A stretch of 64,000 bases of DNA from Escherichia phage dhabil, in the sequence record MN850621.1; one strand, given 5' to 3'. The notes beneath the pieces were generated by a model, which had not been told where the DNA came from, ran no database searches, and was given only the letters and a program-made list of their open reading frames with translations. The translations under genes and the position numbers were made by a program. Numbering within the stretch: position 1 is the stretch's first letter; each line of letters opens with the position of its first letter. Positions 2,323 to 59,113 of this stretch are shown here, one piece after another.

Positions 2323-2916
2323 TTACTTAAGTGAATTAATGTAGTCTTCGATATCGGCTGAAGTCGTATCCATTCCAACTTGTGGGCCTTTAAACGTTTC
2401 TACACGCAGCAGGGTATCTTCAATATCAATCTTAGTCAATGCAGCGATTTCAACCACATCATCGGCAGTAGCAATACCAAGGGCAGCCATATTACGAGTT
2501 TCACGAATGTACTCAAGCTTAACCGCTAGTTCCTGGCGAGAGTCATCAAGTTCCTTGACCTTCAGTTTAATTTCATTACGCATTTCGATATAATCGTCTG
2601 CTTTCTTACGAAGTTGATTAGCTGTACGACGATAAAGGAGGCCAAGTTTAGCATGCACCTGGACATCGGCGCCTTCTTTAATCAGTTTACGAATTTCACG
2701 CTCTTTTGAAGCGGCGAGTTGGTCTTTTTCATTCGCTAACTCGCGAATACGTTTTTCTTCATTCACAGACTTAACATGAGCAGTCTGGAGTTCAGTAATT
2801 TTATCAATCAGGGTAGAAGCAGCTTTAGTATACTGGTCTTCGATTGACAGGTTCTGAGTCATTGCGGTACCCAGTTTAGAACGGATGAATTCAACGATTT
2901 TCTTTAAAGTGTTCAT
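2323..2916 (-). CDS. alpha-helical coiled-coil protein (about 197 aa from MNTLKK)
   Basis: ORF track; start moved to ATG at 2916 with RBS GAAGGA, because 2917-2991 carries a promoter; K/E/R/L-rich heptad-like sequence. Confidence 0.55.
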
Positions 2917-2959
2917 AGTATTTCCTTCAGTCGGTTGATATTTTGTAATCCATGAGGAC

Positions 2960-2989
2960 ATTATACCCTGTCCTCTGAGGGTTGTAAAC
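2960..2989 (-). promoter_or_regulatory. early sigma70-type promoter (GTTTAC-N18-TATAAT, minus sense) with hairpin GAGGACA/TGTCCTC around the -10
   Basis: Read on minus strand: GTTTAC AACCCTCAGAGGACAGGG TATAAT; resembles T4 early promoters. Confidence 0.45.
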
Positions 2990-2992
2990 ATT

Positions 2993-3391
2993 TTATTTCA
3001 TTTTTGCTAGGCAAATTTCATTGGCTTCCCATTGAGCTTGCTTAATAATAGCTTTGGATACAGGAACCCTTTGACCATAAGTTTTTGACGTTGAGAGAAC
3101 AATATATTTGTTTGCCTCATTATGCCAACCTAGTGATTTTTCACCATGAGTACCTTTAACCACAGCTGACACCTCAACAGAGCAACCACCATCAGAAATC
3201 TTGGTTTCTACAATCCATTCATTTCTCTCGACAGCTTCAATTTCCGATCTCCTTTTTTCTTCATACATGGCGGCCCAATCAGTTTTTGCCAAGCTGAAAG
3301 TAAGAGCTTTCTCTAATTCTTTGGCAGCTTTTTGTTGTTCAGGCGTTAATGAATTATACAACTCTTGCATTTCTTTATCTTCGATATTCAT
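2993..3391 (-). CDS. hypothetical protein (132 aa)
   Basis: ORF track; RBS GAGGAGA before ATG at 3389-3391. Confidence 0.55.
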
Positions 3392-3416
3392 TATGCTCTC
3401 CTCAAATTACGGGCTC

Positions 3417-3446
3417 ATAATATCTCAATCATGAGCCCGTGTAAAC
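3417..3446 (-). promoter_or_regulatory. early promoter (GTTTAC-N18-TATTAT) inside hairpin ACGGGCTCAT...ATGAGCCCGT
   Basis: Minus sense: GTTTAC ACGGGCTCATGATTGAGA TATTAT; 10-bp inverted repeat encloses the -10. Confidence 0.4.
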
Positions 3447-3448
3447 AA

Positions 3449-3712
3449 TTATTTCATATTATTGAAATAATCTTCCGCATCAAAATCGTTATCGTGATAA
3501 ACTTTGGTAGACAATTTGACGTACCCTTCGGCAGCAAACATATTAACCACAACCTTTACGGTATACCACTGTCCATCGTCATTACCCATTACTGCGTAGG
3601 TTTCAAATATGGGATGGTCATCACCTATAACCTTAATATCGTTAACAGTAGCACCAAATTCTTCAGGAACGCATTTCATAAAGAAATTAAACAATTCACC
3701 ATAATTATCCAT
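3449..3712 (-). CDS. small acidic hypothetical protein (about 87 aa from MDNYGELF)
   Basis: ORF track uses a GTG start at 3727; ATG at 3710-3712 has RBS GAAGGAGAG and is preferred. Confidence 0.5.
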   Translation of the reverse strand: MDNYGELFNFFMKCVPEEFGATVNDIKVIGDDHPIFETYAVMGNDDGQWYTVKVVVNMFAAEGYVKLSTKVYHDNDFDAEDYFNNMK

Positions 3713-3747
3713 TTTACTCTCCTTCACTCTGTTGTTTTGATAGGTCT

Positions 3748-3776
3748 ATAGTATCACGTTTAAAGGAGGTGTAAAC
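3748..3776 (-). promoter_or_regulatory. early promoter (GTTTAC/TTTACA -35, TACTAT -10)
   Basis: One of three near-identical copies of ...TTTACA-N16/17-TACTATAG(G/A)CCTATCAAAA (also at 5902 and 6253). Confidence 0.5.
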
Positions 3777-3807
3777 AACTTTGTGAAATTATTTTTAGTT
3801 TAAACCC

Positions 3808-3829
3808 CCTAAAAGGAGACCGAAGTCTC
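3808..3829 (-). terminator. intrinsic terminator GGAGAC-TTCG-GTCTCC + TTTT (minus sense)
   Basis: Hairpin followed by TTTTAGGGGG, directly after the 3836-4459 gene. Confidence 0.5.
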
Positions 3830-3835
3830 CTTTCA

Positions 3836-4459
3836 TTATTTACGAGTCTTTTCGAACTGAGCTGCGTCACCGGCCAGTCGGCGTGCTTGACGAAGTTTGT
3901 TGTCAATTTCTTCGCGCATAGGCTGGGTGTACTTAAGGCCTTCAACCGTCAGATAGAGACGATAAAGGTCTGGTGTGTCCAGGTTGTTAATGTGTTGACC
4001 GTTACGAAGAACATTGAATTCACGAACAAGGTGTTTAGTTTCGGATTCTATTTCAGAAACCAAAGAAGCCAGTTGGTTATATTTTTTAACAATAGTGCTG
4101 GTGTCGAACTTGATTTTAGGTTTAGGAGCTTCTTTTACAGGCTCTGCTTTAGGTGCTGCCGCAGGTTTAGGTGGTGCAACTTTGGTTGGGGCTGCAGGTT
4201 TAGCAACAGGAGCTTTAGCTGGTTTAGCAGGTTTAGTAGCGCCACCGGCTACGATATCTTTAAAAGCTTTGGAAGCTTTGTAATATTCTTTCTGGTTACT
4301 AGTATCAAAACCATACATATCATAAACGTTTTTAAAGAACTCGGTAGTGGTTTTAGTCCCGGAAATTTTATCATAAGCAGCTTGCCACATATCTTTAGTC
4401 ATGCGCACGCTGGCTTCAGTCAGAACGCTTTCGTTCAAAAATTCATTGTAAGTTTTCAT
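3836..4459 (-). CDS. internal head protein, IPIII-like (207 aa) with N-terminal capsid-targeting sequence MKTYNEFLNE
   Basis: N-terminus matches the T4 internal-protein CTS (MKTYQEF-type, L-x-E gp21 cleavage context); Lys/Ala/Pro-rich basic core; T4 IPIII is similar in size. Confidence 0.7.
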   Translation of the reverse strand: MKTYNEFLNESVLTEASVRMTKDMWQAAYDKISGTKTTTEFFKNVYDMYGFDTSNQKEYYKASKAFKDIVAGGATKPAKPAKAPVAKPAAPTKVAPPKPAAAPKAEPVKEAPKPKIKFDTSTIVKKYNQLASLVSEIESETKHLVREFNVLRNGQHINNLDTPDLYRLYLTVEGLKYTQPMREEIDNKLRQARRLAGDAAQFEKTRK

Positions 4460-4499
4460 TATTGTTTCCTGTGTTAATTAACTTATCTATTTATACAAA

Positions 4500-4528
4500 A
4501 AAGGCCCAACCTTTCGGAAGGGCCTTTA
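4500..4528 (-). terminator. intrinsic terminator (GGCCC...GGGCC hairpin + T6, minus sense)
   Basis: Minus sense AAAGGCCCTTCCGAAAGGTTGGGCCTTTTTTG; core identical to the hairpin at 50656-50679. Confidence 0.6.
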
Positions 4529-4529
4529 A

Positions 4530-4694
4530 CCTAGGGTAACCTTGTCGGGGTTCCACCTGCTAGGCAAGTGTTCGGTGCGCCGTTTCAGCTGTGAGATAAG
4601 GGACTTTAAGAGGAACTCATGTACGCCTTAAAGTCGGGTCTTATTCAGGGAACTTCAGTCCGACGACTTACCGGTAGCGACCCGGTTTCTTGTT
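4530..4694 (-). ncRNA. candidate small stable RNA just 3' of tRNA-Arg (position analogous to T4 species 1/2 RNAs)
   Basis: 165-nt non-coding stretch between tRNA-Arg and the terminator, with nested inverted repeats (AAGTCG...CGACTT, CCTAG...CTAGG); no cloverleaf. Confidence 0.3.
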
Positions 4695-4770
4695 TGGTCG
4701 AGACAGTAGGGATCGAACCTACGACCCAGGACTTAGAAGGTCCTTGCTCTTCCTTCTGAGCTATGCCTCG
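4695..4770 (-). tRNA. tRNA-Arg (anticodon UCU), CCA encoded
   Basis: Manual fold: acceptor CGAGGCA/TGTCTCG, D-arm GCTC/GAGC, anticodon stem AGGAC/GTCCT with loop CTTCTAA, T-arm GTAGG-TTCGATC-CCTAC. Confidence 0.8.
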
Positions 4771-4774
4771 TATT

Positions 4775-4849
4775 TGGCGGACATGCATGGATTCGAACCA
4801 TGGACCAATTGATTAACAGTCAACTGCTCTACCACTGAGCTACACATCC
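4775..4849 (-). tRNA. tRNA-Asn (anticodon GUU), CCA encoded
   Basis: Manual fold: acceptor GGATGTG/CATGTCC, D-arm GCTC-AGTGGTA-GAGC, anticodon loop CTGTTAA, T-arm CATGG-TTCGAAT-CCATG. Confidence 0.75.
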
Positions 4850-4853
4850 AAAT

Positions 4854-4927
4854 TGGTGGCCCTGGGTGGAATCGAACCACCATCCAGCGATTATGAGTCG
4901 CTCGCTTGACCGTCCAGCTACAGGGCC
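4854..4927 (-). tRNA. tRNA with CAU anticodon (Met, or Ile if lysidine-modified), CCA encoded
   Basis: Manual fold: acceptor GGCCCTG/CAGGGCC, anticodon stem AGCGA/TCGCT with loop CTCATAA, T-arm GGTGG-TTCGATT-CCACC. Confidence 0.75.
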
Positions 4928-5012
4928 TTAATTCTATTATGAAAGGCTCTTTGAGGGAAGAACCTTTGGTAATAGAGGGTATTAATGATAGAGTAATAAT
5001 ATCACATAATTC

Positions 5013-5297
5013 TTAAAGCATATTAATATAGTCAAGTTTAATAGAAGCAATCTTCAAAGGGTTTTTAAAGATGTCGTATTCGACCAATCCATTTTCAGTT
5101 GCGGTATAAAAAGTAAAGTTAACAGAATTATAGCGATGGCTGTTAACTTTGAGTTTAACATCGCTTGAACTACGGCCAATATTAACCTGTTGAACATCAA
5201 GCACGGCATCTTTGCCGTAATTTCGAATCAACAACTCGGCTGCAACCTGATCGGATTTATAGCCATTCTCTGGATTAGTAACCTTAACGTATAACAT
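5013..5297 (-). CDS. hypothetical protein (94 aa)
   Basis: ORF track; abuts the upstream gene end. Confidence 0.5.
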   Translation of the reverse strand: MLYVKVTNPENGYKSDQVAAELLIRNYGKDAVLDVQQVNIGRSSSDVKLKVNSHRYNSVNFTFYTATENGLVEYDIFKNPLKIASIKLDYINML

Positions 5298-5678
5298 TTA
5301 ACCCTCGTCTACAATAGTGTGGGTATTGGCATTGACAATCTGCCACCAGTCAAAACGATTGGAACCGTAACAAGGCTTATTCTCGTTTTCTTTAATGATA
5401 TCGCGCAGTTCATCTTCAGTCGCGGCCTTTGCGATTAAGTCAGCATAACCGCCACGAGGATAATAGTTATCACCGGCAAAGAGCAAAAAGTTTGTTTTGA
5501 TATTCTTGAATTCTTCAAGAGTAATAACTGTTCCACCCGGTTGAACAATATCTACATAACTATATCCTAATTTCTGTGCTTCATTTACCGCTTCAAGCAG
5601 GGTGTCATGCGCCCACCCAATTTGGCAATCTGGTTTTTCAGATGGATTTGCTTGATAATCCGCATACACTTTATACAT
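5298..5678 (-). CDS. hypothetical protein (about 126 aa from MYKVYADY)
   Basis: Start moved to ATG at 5676-5678, which follows RBS AAAGGTGAG and overlaps the upstream stop (TAAAATG). Confidence 0.5.
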   Translation of the reverse strand: MYKVYADYQANPSEKPDCQIGWAHDTLLEAVNEAQKLGYSYVDIVQPGGTVITLEEFKNIKTNFLLFAGDNYYPRGGYADLIAKAATEDELRDIIKENENKPCYGSNRFDWWQIVNANTHTIVDEG

Positions 5679-5679
5679 T

Positions 5680-5877
5680 TTACTCACCTTTAGAGATTTT
5701 ATCCATAACGAAAGAGATTGAACCAATTAAGAATGCCACTACTAAAGAGATTATATTCTCGGAAGTTGTAAGCAAATCCAACATGAATCCTGCAAACATA
5801 CTAAAGCCAAAAGCAGTAACGGCGGCCAGTGCAGTAACATTTCTAATTAATTCACAACGTTTCATTTTATTCTCCAA
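5680..5877 (-). CDS. small membrane protein (65 aa, two hydrophobic helices)
   Basis: ORF track; ALAAVTAFGFSMFAGFML and [17 protein letters not shown] are TM-like. Confidence 0.5.
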   Translation of the reverse strand: MENKMKRCELIRNVTALAAVTAFGFSMFAGFMLDLLTTSENIISLVVAFLIGSISFVMDKISKGE

Positions 5878-5901
5878 TCACTCATTTGTTTTGATAGGGC
5901 T

Positions 5902-5930
5902 ATAGTATCATCACTAGAGCCCGTTGTAAA
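5902..5930 (-). promoter_or_regulatory. early promoter (TTTACA-N17-TACTAT, minus sense)
   Basis: Copy of the conserved promoter motif; inverted repeat GGGCT...AGCCC surrounds the -10. Confidence 0.5.
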
Positions 5931-5935
5931 TAACT

Positions 5936-6214
5936 TTAAAGTGCTTTTTTCAAAATATCAAAGTGCTTGGTGGCGATGTAAACGGTTTTCATTACAGAAG
6001 ATTCTTGAGCCGGGGAAATAACAATGCTCCCACCGTCTTTTTTAGCATGGTAACCGTCGCCCAGATAAACAGTACCTTTAAGTTCATCACCATTAAGACC
6101 GATAACCGGTTTACCTTCACGGCCTTTGTTTAGGGCTATAACTTCACTCATAACACTGGCTTCAGTGATAGGAGCCACTTTTTGAGATTTACTAAATTCT
6201 TGATAAGTTTTCAT
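5936..6214 (-). CDS. internal head protein (IPI/IPII-like, about 92 aa) with CTS MKTYQEF
   Basis: MKTYQEFSKSQKVAPITE N-terminus is a capsid-targeting sequence with an I-T-E cleavage context; the track's upstream MEIK start is less likely. Confidence 0.65.
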   Translation of the reverse strand: MKTYQEFSKSQKVAPITEASVMSEVIALNKGREGKPVIGLNGDELKGTVYLGDGYHAKKDGGSIVISPAQESSVMKTVYIATKHFDILKKAL

Positions 6215-6252
6215 TTTGATTTCCATTTGGTTAGTTTGTTTTTGATAGGCCT

Positions 6253-6281
6253 ATAGTATCATCACTAAAGCCCTTTGTAAA
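6253..6281 (-). promoter_or_regulatory. early promoter (TTTACA-N17-TACTAT, minus sense)
   Basis: Third copy of the conserved motif ...TGTAAAA(C/T)A...AGTGATGATACTATAG.... Confidence 0.5.
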
Positions 6282-6292
6282 ACATTTTTAAA

Positions 6293-7176
<884 letters not shown>

Positions 7177-8610: not shown

Positions 8611-9261
8611 TTATTTTATAAATTCACGTAATCTTACAGGTGTCATAAAAGGCCATTTGGCTATAGTTGGTTTTATCCAGTATCTTTCATGACATGTAGC
8701 TTTAAACGCCCGAACCATATCCTTGGCCTCTTCTATAGTATCCACACCAAATTGTTCACAAGTTTTCTTTCTGGCTTTATCCCATCTCCGTTTAGCAAGC
8801 TCTGCTTGGAGGTCTTTATTGGCAAAATGGCCATTATTCCTGTTATGTGTGGTTCCTTTAGTAGGGCTCCATCCTCGTCCCTTTACAAATCCTTTAGGGA
8901 CAGGTTCGTCTGGGAATAATTTAATACACTTATCACCGTTATTATAATAAACCTTTCCGGTTTGGGTAGCTGTAATATTCTCAGAATGTTTACGTTTAAG
9001 CCACCCATAAAGCTTATTAGAACGACGAGGACCTTGAGTCATTGTCATAGCTGCAAAAGTTAGTCCAGGATGGCCCGGATGTATTTTAACTAATAGTTGA
9101 TGTGCCAAATAATGTTCTTCAGGGGTTAAATCAACTAGGTTTGTAGATTCATCACCTCCACCCATACATCTAGGTAAGATATGATGAGACTCTGTATAGC
9201 AGGATAGTGCTCGTCCTTGAGCACGTTTAATTAATGAAGAATATATTTTCTGGTAATCCAT
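8611..9261 (-). CDS. HNH-family homing endonuclease (free-standing, about 216 aa)
   Basis: HNH motif ESHHILPRCMGGGDESTNLVDLTPEEHYLAH; ATG at 9259-9261 overlaps the gene 2 stop (TAATG); sits between genes 3 and 2, which I recall as adjacent in T4. Confidence 0.7.
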   Translation of the reverse strand: MDYQKIYSSLIKRAQGRALSCYTESHHILPRCMGGGDESTNLVDLTPEEHYLAHQLLVKIHPGHPGLTFAAMTMTQGPRRSNKLYGWLKRKHSENITATQTGKVYYNNGDKCIKLFPDEPVPKGFVKGRGWSPTKGTTHNRNNGHFANKDLQAELAKRRWDKARKKTCEQFGVDTIEEAKDMVRAFKATCHERYWIKPTIAKWPFMTPVRLREFIK

Positions 9262-40044: not shown

Positions 40045-40093
40045 TTGTTTCTGTACTATAGTAACACGTGGGAACCTTGCTGTAAACAACTTT

Positions 40094-40129: not shown

Positions 40130-41413
40130 ATGGCAAAGATTAACGAATTACTGCGCGAGTCAACAACTACTACCAGCAACTCATTGGGTCGCCCTAATCT
40201 TGTTGCTTTGACCCGTGCTACCACTAAACTAATTTATCGCGATATCATCGCTGAACAACGTACAAACCAACCTATCGCTGCGTTGTATGGTGTCAAATAT
40301 CTTACCCCTGATAATGAATTCAGTTTCCAAACCGGTGCAGTTTATGGTGGTGAAGTTGGTTCTAAAGACCGTGAAACTATCCCGGAACTCACAGATAAAG
40401 CCCAGGCGATTGCCAAGGGTGACTACTTTAAGTATCAGAATGTGGTTTATAAGGCTCTTCAAGCAAGCCCACTCGCATCCACTAGCGCTACAGAATTGGC
40501 CGATGCTCTTCAAGAAGGTTTGGTGTCATTAACGTGTCGTTTGGTTCCTGATGCAGCCCATACCACTAAATTTGAAGAGAGTGATGTAGAAATCTCTGAT
40601 GCTGTATTCCAGGTTAATAAATGGAATGCCCCTGTTAAGACCCGTAAATTGAAGACTGCTTTGACCGTAGAATTAGCACAGGATATGGAATCAAATGGCT
40701 TCGACGCCCCTGCATTCTTAGAAGACCTCCTGGCTACAGTAATGGCAGATGAAATTAATAAAGATGTTCTGCAATCCCTAATAACCGTATCCAAACGCTA
40801 TAAAGTTACGGGTGTATCTGATAATGGCATCATCGATTTGACTTATGATAGTGCTCCAGAATCTGCACGTAAACTTTATGAAATTGTTTGTGAGATGAAT
40901 TCTGAAATCCAGAAAACTACTTCTTATTCGGGTACGTTTGTTGTGGCTTCAAGTCGTGTGGCTGCAATGCTTGCAGGTTCTGGCTGGTTAAAACATAGAC
41001 CTGAAGATAATAATTGGCTCCCAGAAACGGCCTATGGTTATTTGTTGAATGGATTACCTCTGTTCTGTGACGTTAACAGCCCATTGGATTATGTTATCGT
41101 AGGTGTTAAAGAGAACTATGGTGGTAATGAAGTTGTCGGTTCTATTTTCTATGCCCCATATACAGAAGGCCTGGATTTAGACGACCAAGAACACGTTGGT
41201 GCTTATAAGGTTATTGTCGACCCGGATTCATTACAGCCTTCTATTTCTCTGATGGTTCGTTATGCACTGTCCGCTAACCCGTACACCGTAGCTAAAGACG
41301 ATAAAGAAGCTCGTGTTATCGATGCAACCAATATGGATTTAATGGCTGGTCAGAGTAATATGTCTTATCTGCTTGGTGTTAAACTTCCAGCAATTATTTA
41401 CGAGGCTGATTAA
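40130..41413 (+). CDS. 24: capsid vertex protein gp24, copy 1
   Basis: 427 aa (T4 gp24 length); gp23-like blocks (FRIDKW..EVK.RKLKT.LTVELAQD, YAPYTEGLD, LSANPYTVAKDDKEARVID). Confidence 0.85.
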   Translation: MAKINELLRESTTTTSNSLGRPNLVALTRATTKLIYRDIIAEQRTNQPIAALYGVKYLTPDNEFSFQTGAVYGGEVGSKDRETIPELTDKAQAIAKGDYFKYQNVVYKALQASPLASTSATELADALQEGLVSLTCRLVPDAAHTTKFEESDVEISDAVFQVNKWNAPVKTRKLKTALTVELAQDMESNGFDAPAFLEDLLATVMADEINKDVLQSLITVSKRYKVTGVSDNGIIDLTYDSAPESARKLYEIVCEMNSEIQKTTSYSGTFVVASSRVAAMLAGSGWLKHRPEDNNWLPETAYGYLLNGLPLFCDVNSPLDYVIVGVKENYGGNEVVGSIFYAPYTEGLDLDDQEHVGAYKVIVDPDSLQPSISLMVRYALSANPYTVAKDDKEARVIDATNMDLMAGQSNMSYLLGVKLPAIIYEAD

Positions 41414-44083: not shown

Positions 44084-44113
44084 ATAGTAACATGAGAATT
44101 TTAACTTGTAAAC
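44084..44113 (-). promoter_or_regulatory. early promoter (GTTTAC-N18-TACTAT, minus sense)
   Basis: Same architecture as the early promoters at 3748, 5902 and 6253. Confidence 0.45.
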
Positions 44114-59083: not shown

Positions 59084-59113
59084 ATAGTACCACATCCTTG
59101 TGGTGTTGTAAAC
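59084..59113 (-). promoter_or_regulatory. early promoter (GTTTAC-N18-TACTAT, minus sense)
   Basis: Minus sense GTTTAC AACACCACAAGGATGTGG TACTAT; spacer contains hairpin CCACA/TGTGG. Confidence 0.45.

Follow-up and report, generated by a model that had tools for sequence, protein, structure and literature searches.

The 64,000-nt stretch of Escherichia phage dhabil considered here (accession number MN850621.1, hereafter the window) carries on its minus strand a family of short repeated promoters, several of which have a hairpin embedded in or next to the -10 element. Their sequences support the assignment of the family to the T4-type early promoters read by the host sigma-70 RNA polymerase, every sequence feature of that class being present, and the hairpins are supported as real, selected structures rather than products of chance. 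Promoter and hairpin probably form composite units acting on read-through RNA, and it seems rather likely that we are dealing with T4-type early promoters whose embedded hairpins act on such RNA and insulate each small gene cassette.

Five of the promoters lie in the region 2800-6500, which is 100% identical to Escherichia phage dhaeg (accession number MN850609; Straboviridae, Tevenvirinae, Dhakavirus; JS98-like). Across 25 kb the window and dhaeg share 99.5% identity, being separated by single-nucleotide polymorphisms and indels, and dhaeg was used as the whole-genome proxy for the window in all genome-wide counts. The window is DNA of a JS98-like T4-type phage, and the five promoters sit in its 57B–ip–tRNA–e.8–e.6 early region, where all genes are on the minus strand and the gene order is syntenic with T4 57B – ipI – trna.4/.3/.2 – tRNA cluster – rnaD/rnaC – e.8 – e.7 – e.6. 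T-even phages have two internal-protein (IP) loci, and the region is one of them.

Early-promoter family of the window

Motif and promoter coordinates are given on the minus strand of the window, and the scores are those of a two-block position matrix built from exact motif matches and then iterated. The promoters are as follows.

2941..2989, minus strand: P2960, upstream of the e.6 homologue; -35 GTTTAC 2989-2984, -10 TATAAT 2965-2960 in a hairpin loop; predicted +1 A2953, conserved leader GGATTACAAA at 2950-2941, likely start codon ATG 2916; matrix score 31.3.
3389..3446, minus strand: P3417, upstream of the open reading frame (ORF) 2993-3391, which occupies the position of T4 e.7; -35 GTTTAC 3446-3441, predicted +1 at about 3410, ATG 3391.
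3710..3776, minus strand: P3748, upstream of e.8; -35 GTTTAC 3776-3771, TGn and -10 TACTAT 3753-3748, consensus extension AGACCTATCAAAA, predicted +1 A3741, ATG 3712; matrix score 32.8.
5863..5931, minus strand: P5902, upstream of the trna.4 homologue; -35 ATTTAC 5931-5926, predicted +1 at about 5895, ATG 5865; matrix score 26.7.
6212..6282, minus strand: P6253, upstream of the internal-protein (ip) gene; -35 TTTTAC 6282-6277, -10 TACTAT 6258-6253, predicted +1 at about 6246, ATG 6214; matrix score 24.1; imperfect hairpin (z = -2.6).
40058..40087, minus strand: early-type promoter, GTTTAC 40087-40082 and TACTAT 40063-40058; matrix score 33.6, the highest in the window.
44084..44113, minus strand: P44084, upstream of a small ORF; GTTTAC 44113-44108 and TACTAT 44089-44084; matrix score 24.8.
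59084..59113, minus strand: P59084, upstream of the alt.-3 homologue; GTTTAC 59113-59108 and TACTAT 59089-59084; matrix score 32.3.

The sequence GATACTATAGNCCTATCAAAA is present in exactly three copies (3735-3755, 5889-5909 and 6240-6260), where shuffling predicts 0.02 and none of 100 shuffles reached three. The -10 hexamer TACTAT of these copies ends at 3748, 5902 and 6253, and each of the three promoters has TTTACA 16-17 nt upstream together with a TGn extended -10, so that the near-identical trio described in the first-pass annotation is indeed there. A search of the window for GTTTAC-N17-19-TANNAT gave seven matches, all on the minus strand, with 0.92 expected. They comprise the site at 3748, the related GTTTAC promoters that the same annotation had listed (2960, 3417, 44084 and 59084), the good site at 40058, which it had missed, and a match at 40845 that was rejected as a promoter, lying inside a gene and not being picked by the matrix. 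A fourth GATACTATAG at 8733-8751, likewise on the minus strand, is inside gene 2 with no recognisable -35 and was set aside as chance or a relic.

With the matrix, 48 sites were found on the early-gene strand of dhaeg and none on the opposite strand, the corresponding numbers being 8 and 0 for the window and 34 and 0 for the T4 early regions. The dhaeg sites are intergenic and directly upstream of early-strand genes in 44 of 49 cases, with leaders mostly 18-36 nt long, and in 26 of the 42 intergenic dhaeg promoters the -35 element lies no more than 5 nt from the upstream stop codon, the promoters being fitted into gaps of a few dozen bases that separate small early genes. T4 has matrix hits in syntenic positions for all five promoters of the region, namely at ipI (73939), trna.4 (73572), e.8 (70696), e.7 (70359) and e.6 (69967). 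A search of the rest of the genome, which had been proposed together with the early-promoter interpretation and was made in dhaeg, has revealed a genome-wide, one-strand promoter family.

The profile of the family consists of an A-tract (-44 to -38), G-T-T-T-A-C, T-15/G-14 (extended -10), T-A-(C/T)-T-A-T and, over positions -6 to +6, A-G-a-C-C-T/A-T-C-A-A-c. Base counts among the 42 intergenic dhaeg promoters are G38/T42/T36/T42/A42/C42 for the -35 element and T42/A42 ... A39/T42 for the -10 element, with T-15 in 37, G-14 in 39 and an A-rich stretch from -44 to -38. The published consensus of T4 early promoters includes GTTTAC at -36 to -31, a UP-like A-tract, TGn and "additional regions of consensus" (PMC2988021), as well as C at -3 to -1 (PMC1524935). 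The early-promoter interpretation is thus supported at the sequence level by the T4 consensus, the strand bias and the position upstream of early-strand genes. The conserved extension past the -10 element fared differently: it had been regarded as a possible regulatory site of the three near-identical promoters, and it turned out to be the -6 to +6 consensus (C-3, C-2, T-1, A+1) common to most promoters of the genome and to T4, which surrounds the predicted start and is no special feature of those three. In many copies it doubles as the 3' arm of the hairpin.

The sites in the near-identical dhaeg amount to a full early-promoter map for a JS98-like phage and allow some start codons placed inside promoters to be corrected. 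The dhaeg annotation puts the start of the e.6 homologue at the ATG within TATAATG, inside the promoter (window 2916-2961, minus strand), and the T4-like start is ATG 2916, which has an AAGGA Shine-Dalgarno (SD) sequence. Over-extended start codons are likewise found at dhaeg 27712 and near 167376. The early-type promoter at 40058-40087 sits between the late genes 24 and 23 and points into gene 23 in the antisense direction. No ORF follows it, and a hairpin GGGAGAC-CGAA-GUCUCCC stands about 20 nt past its predicted start; this promoter may be a source of "anti-late" or short non-coding RNA.

Hairpins within the promoters

The inverted repeats reported in the first-pass annotation at the 3417, 2960 and 5902 sites were found again, around or overlapping the -10 element. 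The pairings in the region, with z-scores of single-promoter folds calculated against shuffled sequences (200 shuffles for P3417), and a separate hairpin of the terminator type are listed below.

2975-2969 with 2960-2954, minus strand: P2960 hairpin, arms GAGGACA and TGTCCTC; z = -1.9.
3440-3431 with 3418-3409, minus strand: P3417 hairpin, perfect over 10 bp, arms ACGGGCTCAT and ATGAGCCCGT; -21.5 kcal/mol, z = -6.4, matched by 0 of 200 shuffles; it encloses the -10 TATTAT (3422-3417), which spans the loop and the 3' arm.
3768-3761 with 3726-3719, minus strand: predicted P3748 pairing of the anti-SD CUCCUUUA with the SD-containing UGAAGGAG.
5922-5914 with 5905-5897, minus strand: P5902 hairpin, arms GGGCU.UAG and CUAUAGCCC, a lengthening of the core repeat GGGCT 5922-5918 / AGCCC 5901-5897; z = -2.1; the 3' arm overlaps the -10 TACTAT (5907-5902).
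3812..3833, minus strand: canonical terminator-type hairpin GGAGAC-UUCG-GUCUCC with a UUUU tail, located between the IP-like gene 3836-4459, which it follows, and P3748, which it precedes; -11.1 kcal/mol for the terminator-like fold (dhaeg 97121).

The short repeats of P6253, P5902 and P2960 are marginal singly and highly non-random as a family. This follows from the covariation described below and from a pairing test on the 42 intergenic dhaeg promoters, in which the spacer (-31 to -13) was matched with the segment downstream of it (-12 to the start codon) and the best RNA duplex was taken. A spacer pairs with its own downstream segment at a mean of -12.4 kcal/mol, and cross-paired promoters give -8.3 kcal/mol (z = -10.3; 0 of 10,000 permutations). 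The spacer showed no preference for its own upstream flank (z = 0.2), and a coding-region control gave z = -2.3. The T4 promoters behave in the same way (-12.5 kcal/mol for own and -7.6 kcal/mol for cross pairing, z = -10.6), so the property is general to T4-type early promoters and not peculiar to the window. An Rfam scan of the whole window detected three tRNAs only, with no match at the promoters.

Most copies have a spacer complementary to sequence on the 3' side of the -10 element, and this 3' arm is located in one of two places. In the first form it falls between -12 and +6, with the -10 element in or at the loop, and gives a hairpin of 7-13 bp with the -10/discriminator as partner, as in P2960, P3417, P5902 and P6253; in the second it falls between +1 and +19 in the Shine-Dalgarno region, as in P3748.

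Covariation was assessed in an alignment anchored on the -10 element, as MAFFT with the flanks included put the stems out of register. In the subclass with TATAAT wholly in a 10-nt loop, represented by 11 distinct sequences (P2960, its paralogues and its orthologues), the paired cells amount to 98.9% and six of eight pairs have changes on both sides, the slid-partner controls giving 35-45%; the four wobble cells are all G.U. The orthologues of P3417, that of T4 included, have 94.9% of cells paired and two compensatory pairs: C-G in the stem is replaced by U-A in other Dhakavirus contigs, and CG/CG by UA/UA in the T4 e.7 promoter. Different arm pairs occupy the same place in the TACTAT class, namely GGTCTATAG/CTATAGACC, AAGGCTAT.GTA/TACTATAGCCTT, GGGCT.TAG/CTATAGCCC and GGTAGGGTA/TACCCTATC, and the arm differences of P5902 relative to the GGTCTATAG/CTATAGACC copies are compensated.

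A near-identical promoter, GTTGACATTTGG(A/C/G)TCAAC...TATAATGGTACCATGGATTACAAA, is carried by many metagenomic viral contigs in IMG/VR (loci L031, L034, L046, L049, L051, L059, L063, L093, L104, L119 and L128), so that the GGATTAYAAA leader after the -10 element is common to the TATAAT-loop subclass and those contigs. The pattern search TATAAT-N8-9-GGATTAYAAA in IMG/VR gave mostly noise from AT-rich contigs, with few usable T4-like copies.

Probable action on read-through RNA and the internal-protein locus

Since the predicted +1 is downstream of the 5' arm, the transcript of the promoter itself lacks that arm, and only read-through RNA from the upstream gene (or single-stranded DNA) can fold. 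The sense strand folds slightly better than the antisense strand (-12.4 and -11.7 kcal/mol, p = 0.02). Promoters abutting an upstream ORF have hairpins of -13.8 kcal/mol (n = 26) and those spaced from it -10.0 kcal/mol (n = 16; p = 0.03), which fits a role for the upstream message, be it as its 3'-end hairpin, as an attenuator or as a barrier that comes into play following Rho-dependent termination or processing. The hairpins of the first form would be the 3'-end hairpin, attenuator or processing barrier of the upstream message, and stem-loops without U-tracts have been associated with 3' ends of Rho-terminated transcripts (PMC13613805).

The second form would mask the ribosome-binding site (RBS), which is also the GGAG target of RegB, and the gene would be translated mainly from the transcript of its own promoter, or once the stem has been opened by ribosomes completing the gene upstream; masking could also impose translational coupling. 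For P3748 the modelled probability of the SD being unpaired (dhaeg 97121) is 0.88 in the promoter-initiated RNA and 0.00 in the read-through RNA, which makes it the masked type within the window, P2960, P3417, P5902 and P6253 being of the local-hairpin type. RNA secondary structure protects against RegB cleavage (PMC3014915), so masking GGAG would shield it from RegB as well. The anti-SD motifs CTCC/CCTC occur in 14 of the 42 spacers, an approximately six-fold enrichment over the expected 5.7% (p = 4e-8), and GGAG/GAGG occur there at the expected rate. Predicted folds lower the mean SD accessibility from 0.66 in a promoter's own transcript to 0.35 in read-through RNA, where the values are bimodal: 13 of 42 are below 0.05 (masked), 14 of 42 exceed 0.6 (open), and intermediate ones are depleted (13 against 21.9 +/- 2.8, p = 0.001).

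Several points weigh against insulation by hairpins on read-through RNA. There is no notable hairpin in a number of promoters, among them P44084, P59084, dhaeg 153454 and dhaeg 167068; folding of P44084 gave nothing significant (z = +0.8), and the spacer of P59084 holds a small hairpin, CCACA-AGGA-UGUGG. The sense strand is favoured by a small margin (0.6 kcal/mol), hairpin strength is linked only modestly to abutting ORFs, and the weaker hairpins that follow a canonical upstream terminator (-9.4 kcal/mol, n = 7) are not significantly so (p = 0.10). A shuffled upstream sequence gives the same mean SD accessibility in read-through RNA (0.37) as the native one (0.35), cross-paired promoters likewise being no different, so that CT-rich spacers generically account for some of the masking, and full masking in 13 promoters does not differ significantly from the 9.7 +/- 2.2 of cross-paired ones (p = 0.10). 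Finally, templated quasi-palindrome mutation, or gene conversion among the copies, could have produced some of the compensatory-looking changes. No genome-wide 5'-end or 3'-end mapping data sets for T4 surfaced in the literature searches.

A broader proposal, put forward tentatively, is that the complementarity between spacer and downstream segment is a general, built-in design rule of T4-type early promoters, each spacer holding a switch that sets the behaviour of the downstream gene on read-through RNA. Such a promoter would be in one of two states, with either the RBS and RegB GGAG target fully masked, or the CT-rich spacer locked in a local hairpin and the RBS left open. If true, this would represent a promoter-encoded code of translational insulation and coupling that separates "own-promoter" from "read-through" expression, and a possible basis of the distinction between immediate-early and delayed-early genes.

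The first-pass annotation had suggested compact terminator-promoter units, in which the hairpins are true transcription terminators for read-through transcripts. The part that is probably right is the composite unit of promoter and stem-loop on read-through RNA, equivalent to the published concept of the promoter-early stem-loop (PeSL) cassette; the classical terminator is not supported. A U-tract follows none of the 26 strong embedded hairpins, the 8 nt past the stem containing one to four T in A-rich tails, and a terminator scan flagged no embedded promoter hairpin, so these are not canonical intrinsic terminators. Separate CUUCGG-type hairpins with T-runs are present where the genome needs them and space allows, e.g. 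at 3812-3833, and the helices pairing with the SD have loops of about 15-35 nt, unfit for intrinsic termination. Termination is nevertheless favoured by the stronger hairpins where there is no room for a separate terminator, by the stem-loops without U-tracts at Rho-terminated 3' ends mentioned above, and by the RB49/phi1 PeSL211/210 stem-loop, which lowered expression as much as the rrnB T1 terminator when placed between a strong promoter and lacZ (PMC2839356); according to the same paper, the RB49 stems are polyG/polyC, unlike those of the window. True termination is thus an unlikely explanation, and the alternative offered for the stem-loops is masking of the ribosome site or formation of 3'-end hairpins, on read-through RNA only.

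The repeated cassettes are associated with gene exchange. The ip gene between P6253 and P5902 has an unrelated body in the window compared with five other Dhakavirus contigs, with the capsid-targeting leader MKTYQEF... kept. In the orthologue alignment P6253 is a chimera, its 5' half being of the trna.4-promoter type and its 3' half of the ip-promoter type with the junction in the shared GATACTATAG core, which accounts for the degraded, imperfect hairpin. Near-identical cassettes would serve as homology patches for recombination exchanging the genes between them, and they mark sites of internal-protein gene exchange, providing landmarks for phage engineering and for finding accessory genes.

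Such exchange within the elements also speaks for a role at the DNA level, either as cruciforms or hairpins whose extrusion helps melt the -10 element, or as structure-specific recombination hot-spots, for instance targets of endonuclease VII or another DNA-binding protein. The stems are mostly Watson-Crick (396 pairs against 37 G.U), the antisense strand folds nearly as well as the sense strand, and in PMC2839356 Arbiol et al. speculate on a recombination protein recognising stem-loops and report GGGC/GCCC inverted repeats at T4 deletion endpoints, a motif found in P3417 and P5902. This role is nonetheless improbable: loops of 8-12 nt, and far longer ones in the SD-pairing form, make cruciform extrusion costly, the wobbles are G.U on the sense strand and never A.C, the arm sequences vary among copies and leave no conserved site for a sequence-specific protein, and homology alone explains recombination in T4-type phages.

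It is about equally doubtful that a regulator of phage or host origin, such as a factor shutting off early promoters, binds to the extension past the -10 element (ATAG-NN-CTATCAAC). Positions -3 to +5 are conserved in 24-35 of the 42 promoters and in T4 as well, which exceeds the needs of standard sigma-70 contacts, and the shut-off mechanism of T4 early promoters has been described as incompletely understood (PMC3014915). These positions correspond, however, to start-site and discriminator preferences (pyrimidine at -1, A at +1, C at -3 to -1; PMC1524935), and the second promoter subclass has a variable stem followed by GGATTAYAAA in place of the segment. In P6253 ATAGGCCTAT is a perfect 10-bp palindrome, but the palindrome is imperfect elsewhere (ATAGACCTAT, ATAGCCCTAT), and no candidate protein was identified.

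That the repeats are functionless by-products of cassette duplication, gene conversion and templated mutation is very improbable, even though the promoters are a recombining multi-copy family and templated quasi-palindrome mutation, well documented in T4, can perfect palindromes without selection: the repeats are position-specific, with the 5' arm always in the spacer and its partner always downstream, unrelated arm sequences stand in exactly the same register in the TATAAT-in-loop subclass, the P3417 stem is kept between Dhakavirus and T4 despite sequence change, anti-SD motifs are enriched and hairpin strength tracks gene spacing.

Some neighbouring elements of the locus deserve mention. T4 injects its internal proteins together with its DNA, and some of these proteins counter host defences. 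A second internal-protein-like gene (3836-4530, minus strand; 207 aa, leader MKTYNEF) is served by no early promoter and is preceded by an intrinsic terminator and then by the T4 late-promoter motif TATAAATA. Directly after tRNA-Arg, at 4480-4700 on the minus strand, there is a homologue of the T4 small stable RNAs rnaD/rnaC, with 92% identity over 60 nt to the region annotated as rnaD in T4 and with additional blocks that match rnaD and rnaC. A GGCCC...GGGCC-T6 terminator marks the end of this homologue, which matches no Rfam family. The 216-nt gap between 57B and P6253 is filled by a 61-codon ORF (6293-6478, minus strand) that is unannotated in dhaeg and whose C-terminus resembles the WVSS motif of a tandem small-ORF family at 365-1132. 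In that family, also on the minus strand, four copies of a 48-nt repeat are located at the junctions of the tandem paralogous ORFs, which end in a conserved W(V/F)(S/T)SSxxC followed by TAAGG..ATG.

Comparison with known systems

With the T4 early promoters, described as having an "uber" UP/-35/TGn/-10 structure (PMC2988021, PMC1524935), the family shares GTTTAC, the A-rich tract, TGn, TAnnAT, the C-rich positions -3 to -1 and the extra conserved positions, all sites being on the early strand directly upstream of small early genes. There is no essential difference; TACTAT is the commonest -10 element here, and over -6 to +6 the consensus AGACCTATCAAC shows greater uniformity than its T4 counterpart (ACAACTATCAAC / TACCCTATCAAC).

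The intrinsic terminators also have a stable stem-loop right after the stop codon, and the difference here is that the U-tract is missing and several loops are too large. Hairpin promoters of the N4 type were rejected as a model, since they depend on 3-nt loops and on an RNA polymerase of the virion, and neither condition holds here.

Hairpins in long transcripts that sequester the RBS, combined with an internal promoter giving translatable RNA, are known for T4 e, soc, 49 and I-TevI, and Gibb and Edgell reportedly presented Aeh1 mobE in 2009 as an example of an RBS-hiding hairpin (a reference listed in PMC3014915). As in the T4 cases, the 5' arm of the second form lies upstream of the internal start and the SD is in the 3' arm, so that the distal transcript alone would be masked. 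The internal promoter there is late or middle and provides temporal control, whereas here it is early and the 5' arm is inside the spacer of the promoter itself.

The PeSL cassettes are known from RB49/phi1, T4/PST and KVP40/nt-1 (PMC2839356, PMC4122927), and in most cases their stem-loops occupy the interval from -35 to -10 or overlap the -10 element (PMC2839356). The IP loci of T-even phages are flanked by PeSL-like elements, which are described as analogues built around T4 early promoters and having weaker, more AT-rich stems (PMC2839356, PMC4122927). An AT-rich region, an early promoter with a stem-loop at -35/-10 and then the SD and ATG are shared with the elements studied here, as are the intergenic position between small variable genes, the repetition and the link to gene swaps, including that at the present IP locus. 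By architecture, location and gene-swap association, as far as sequence can tell, the promoter and hairpin units belong to the PeSL-like class. Compared with the RB49/phi1 cassettes, there are no polyG/polyC stems but stems of mixed sequence, and the -35 element is GTTTAC instead of that of a near-perfect TTGACA/TATAAT promoter, so the stems of dhaeg and the window fit the T-even "analogue" type of PMC2839356. The PeSL idea thereby gains quantitative support, from permutation and covariation, in another T4 subgroup and in T4 itself.

In another promoter type, the SD-pairing form resembles the anti-SD "insulators" of sigma-54 promoters (Levy et al., bioRxiv 10.1101/086108), where short CT-rich motifs pair with the SD only in read-through RNA. 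Those motifs are within the promoter, up to 25 bp upstream of the SD, and silence read-through expression; the sigma factor and the organism are different, and the motifs are 3-5 nt long, compared with promoter-specific helices often reaching 9-13 bp here. In the accessible PeSL texts (PMC2839356, PMC4122927) the SD appears only as a part of the cassette, and neither an SD-pairing form nor promoter-specific complementarity between spacer and leader is described. The promoter-specific, bimodal pairing of spacer and leader, present in T4 too, may be the one aspect that goes beyond the literature.

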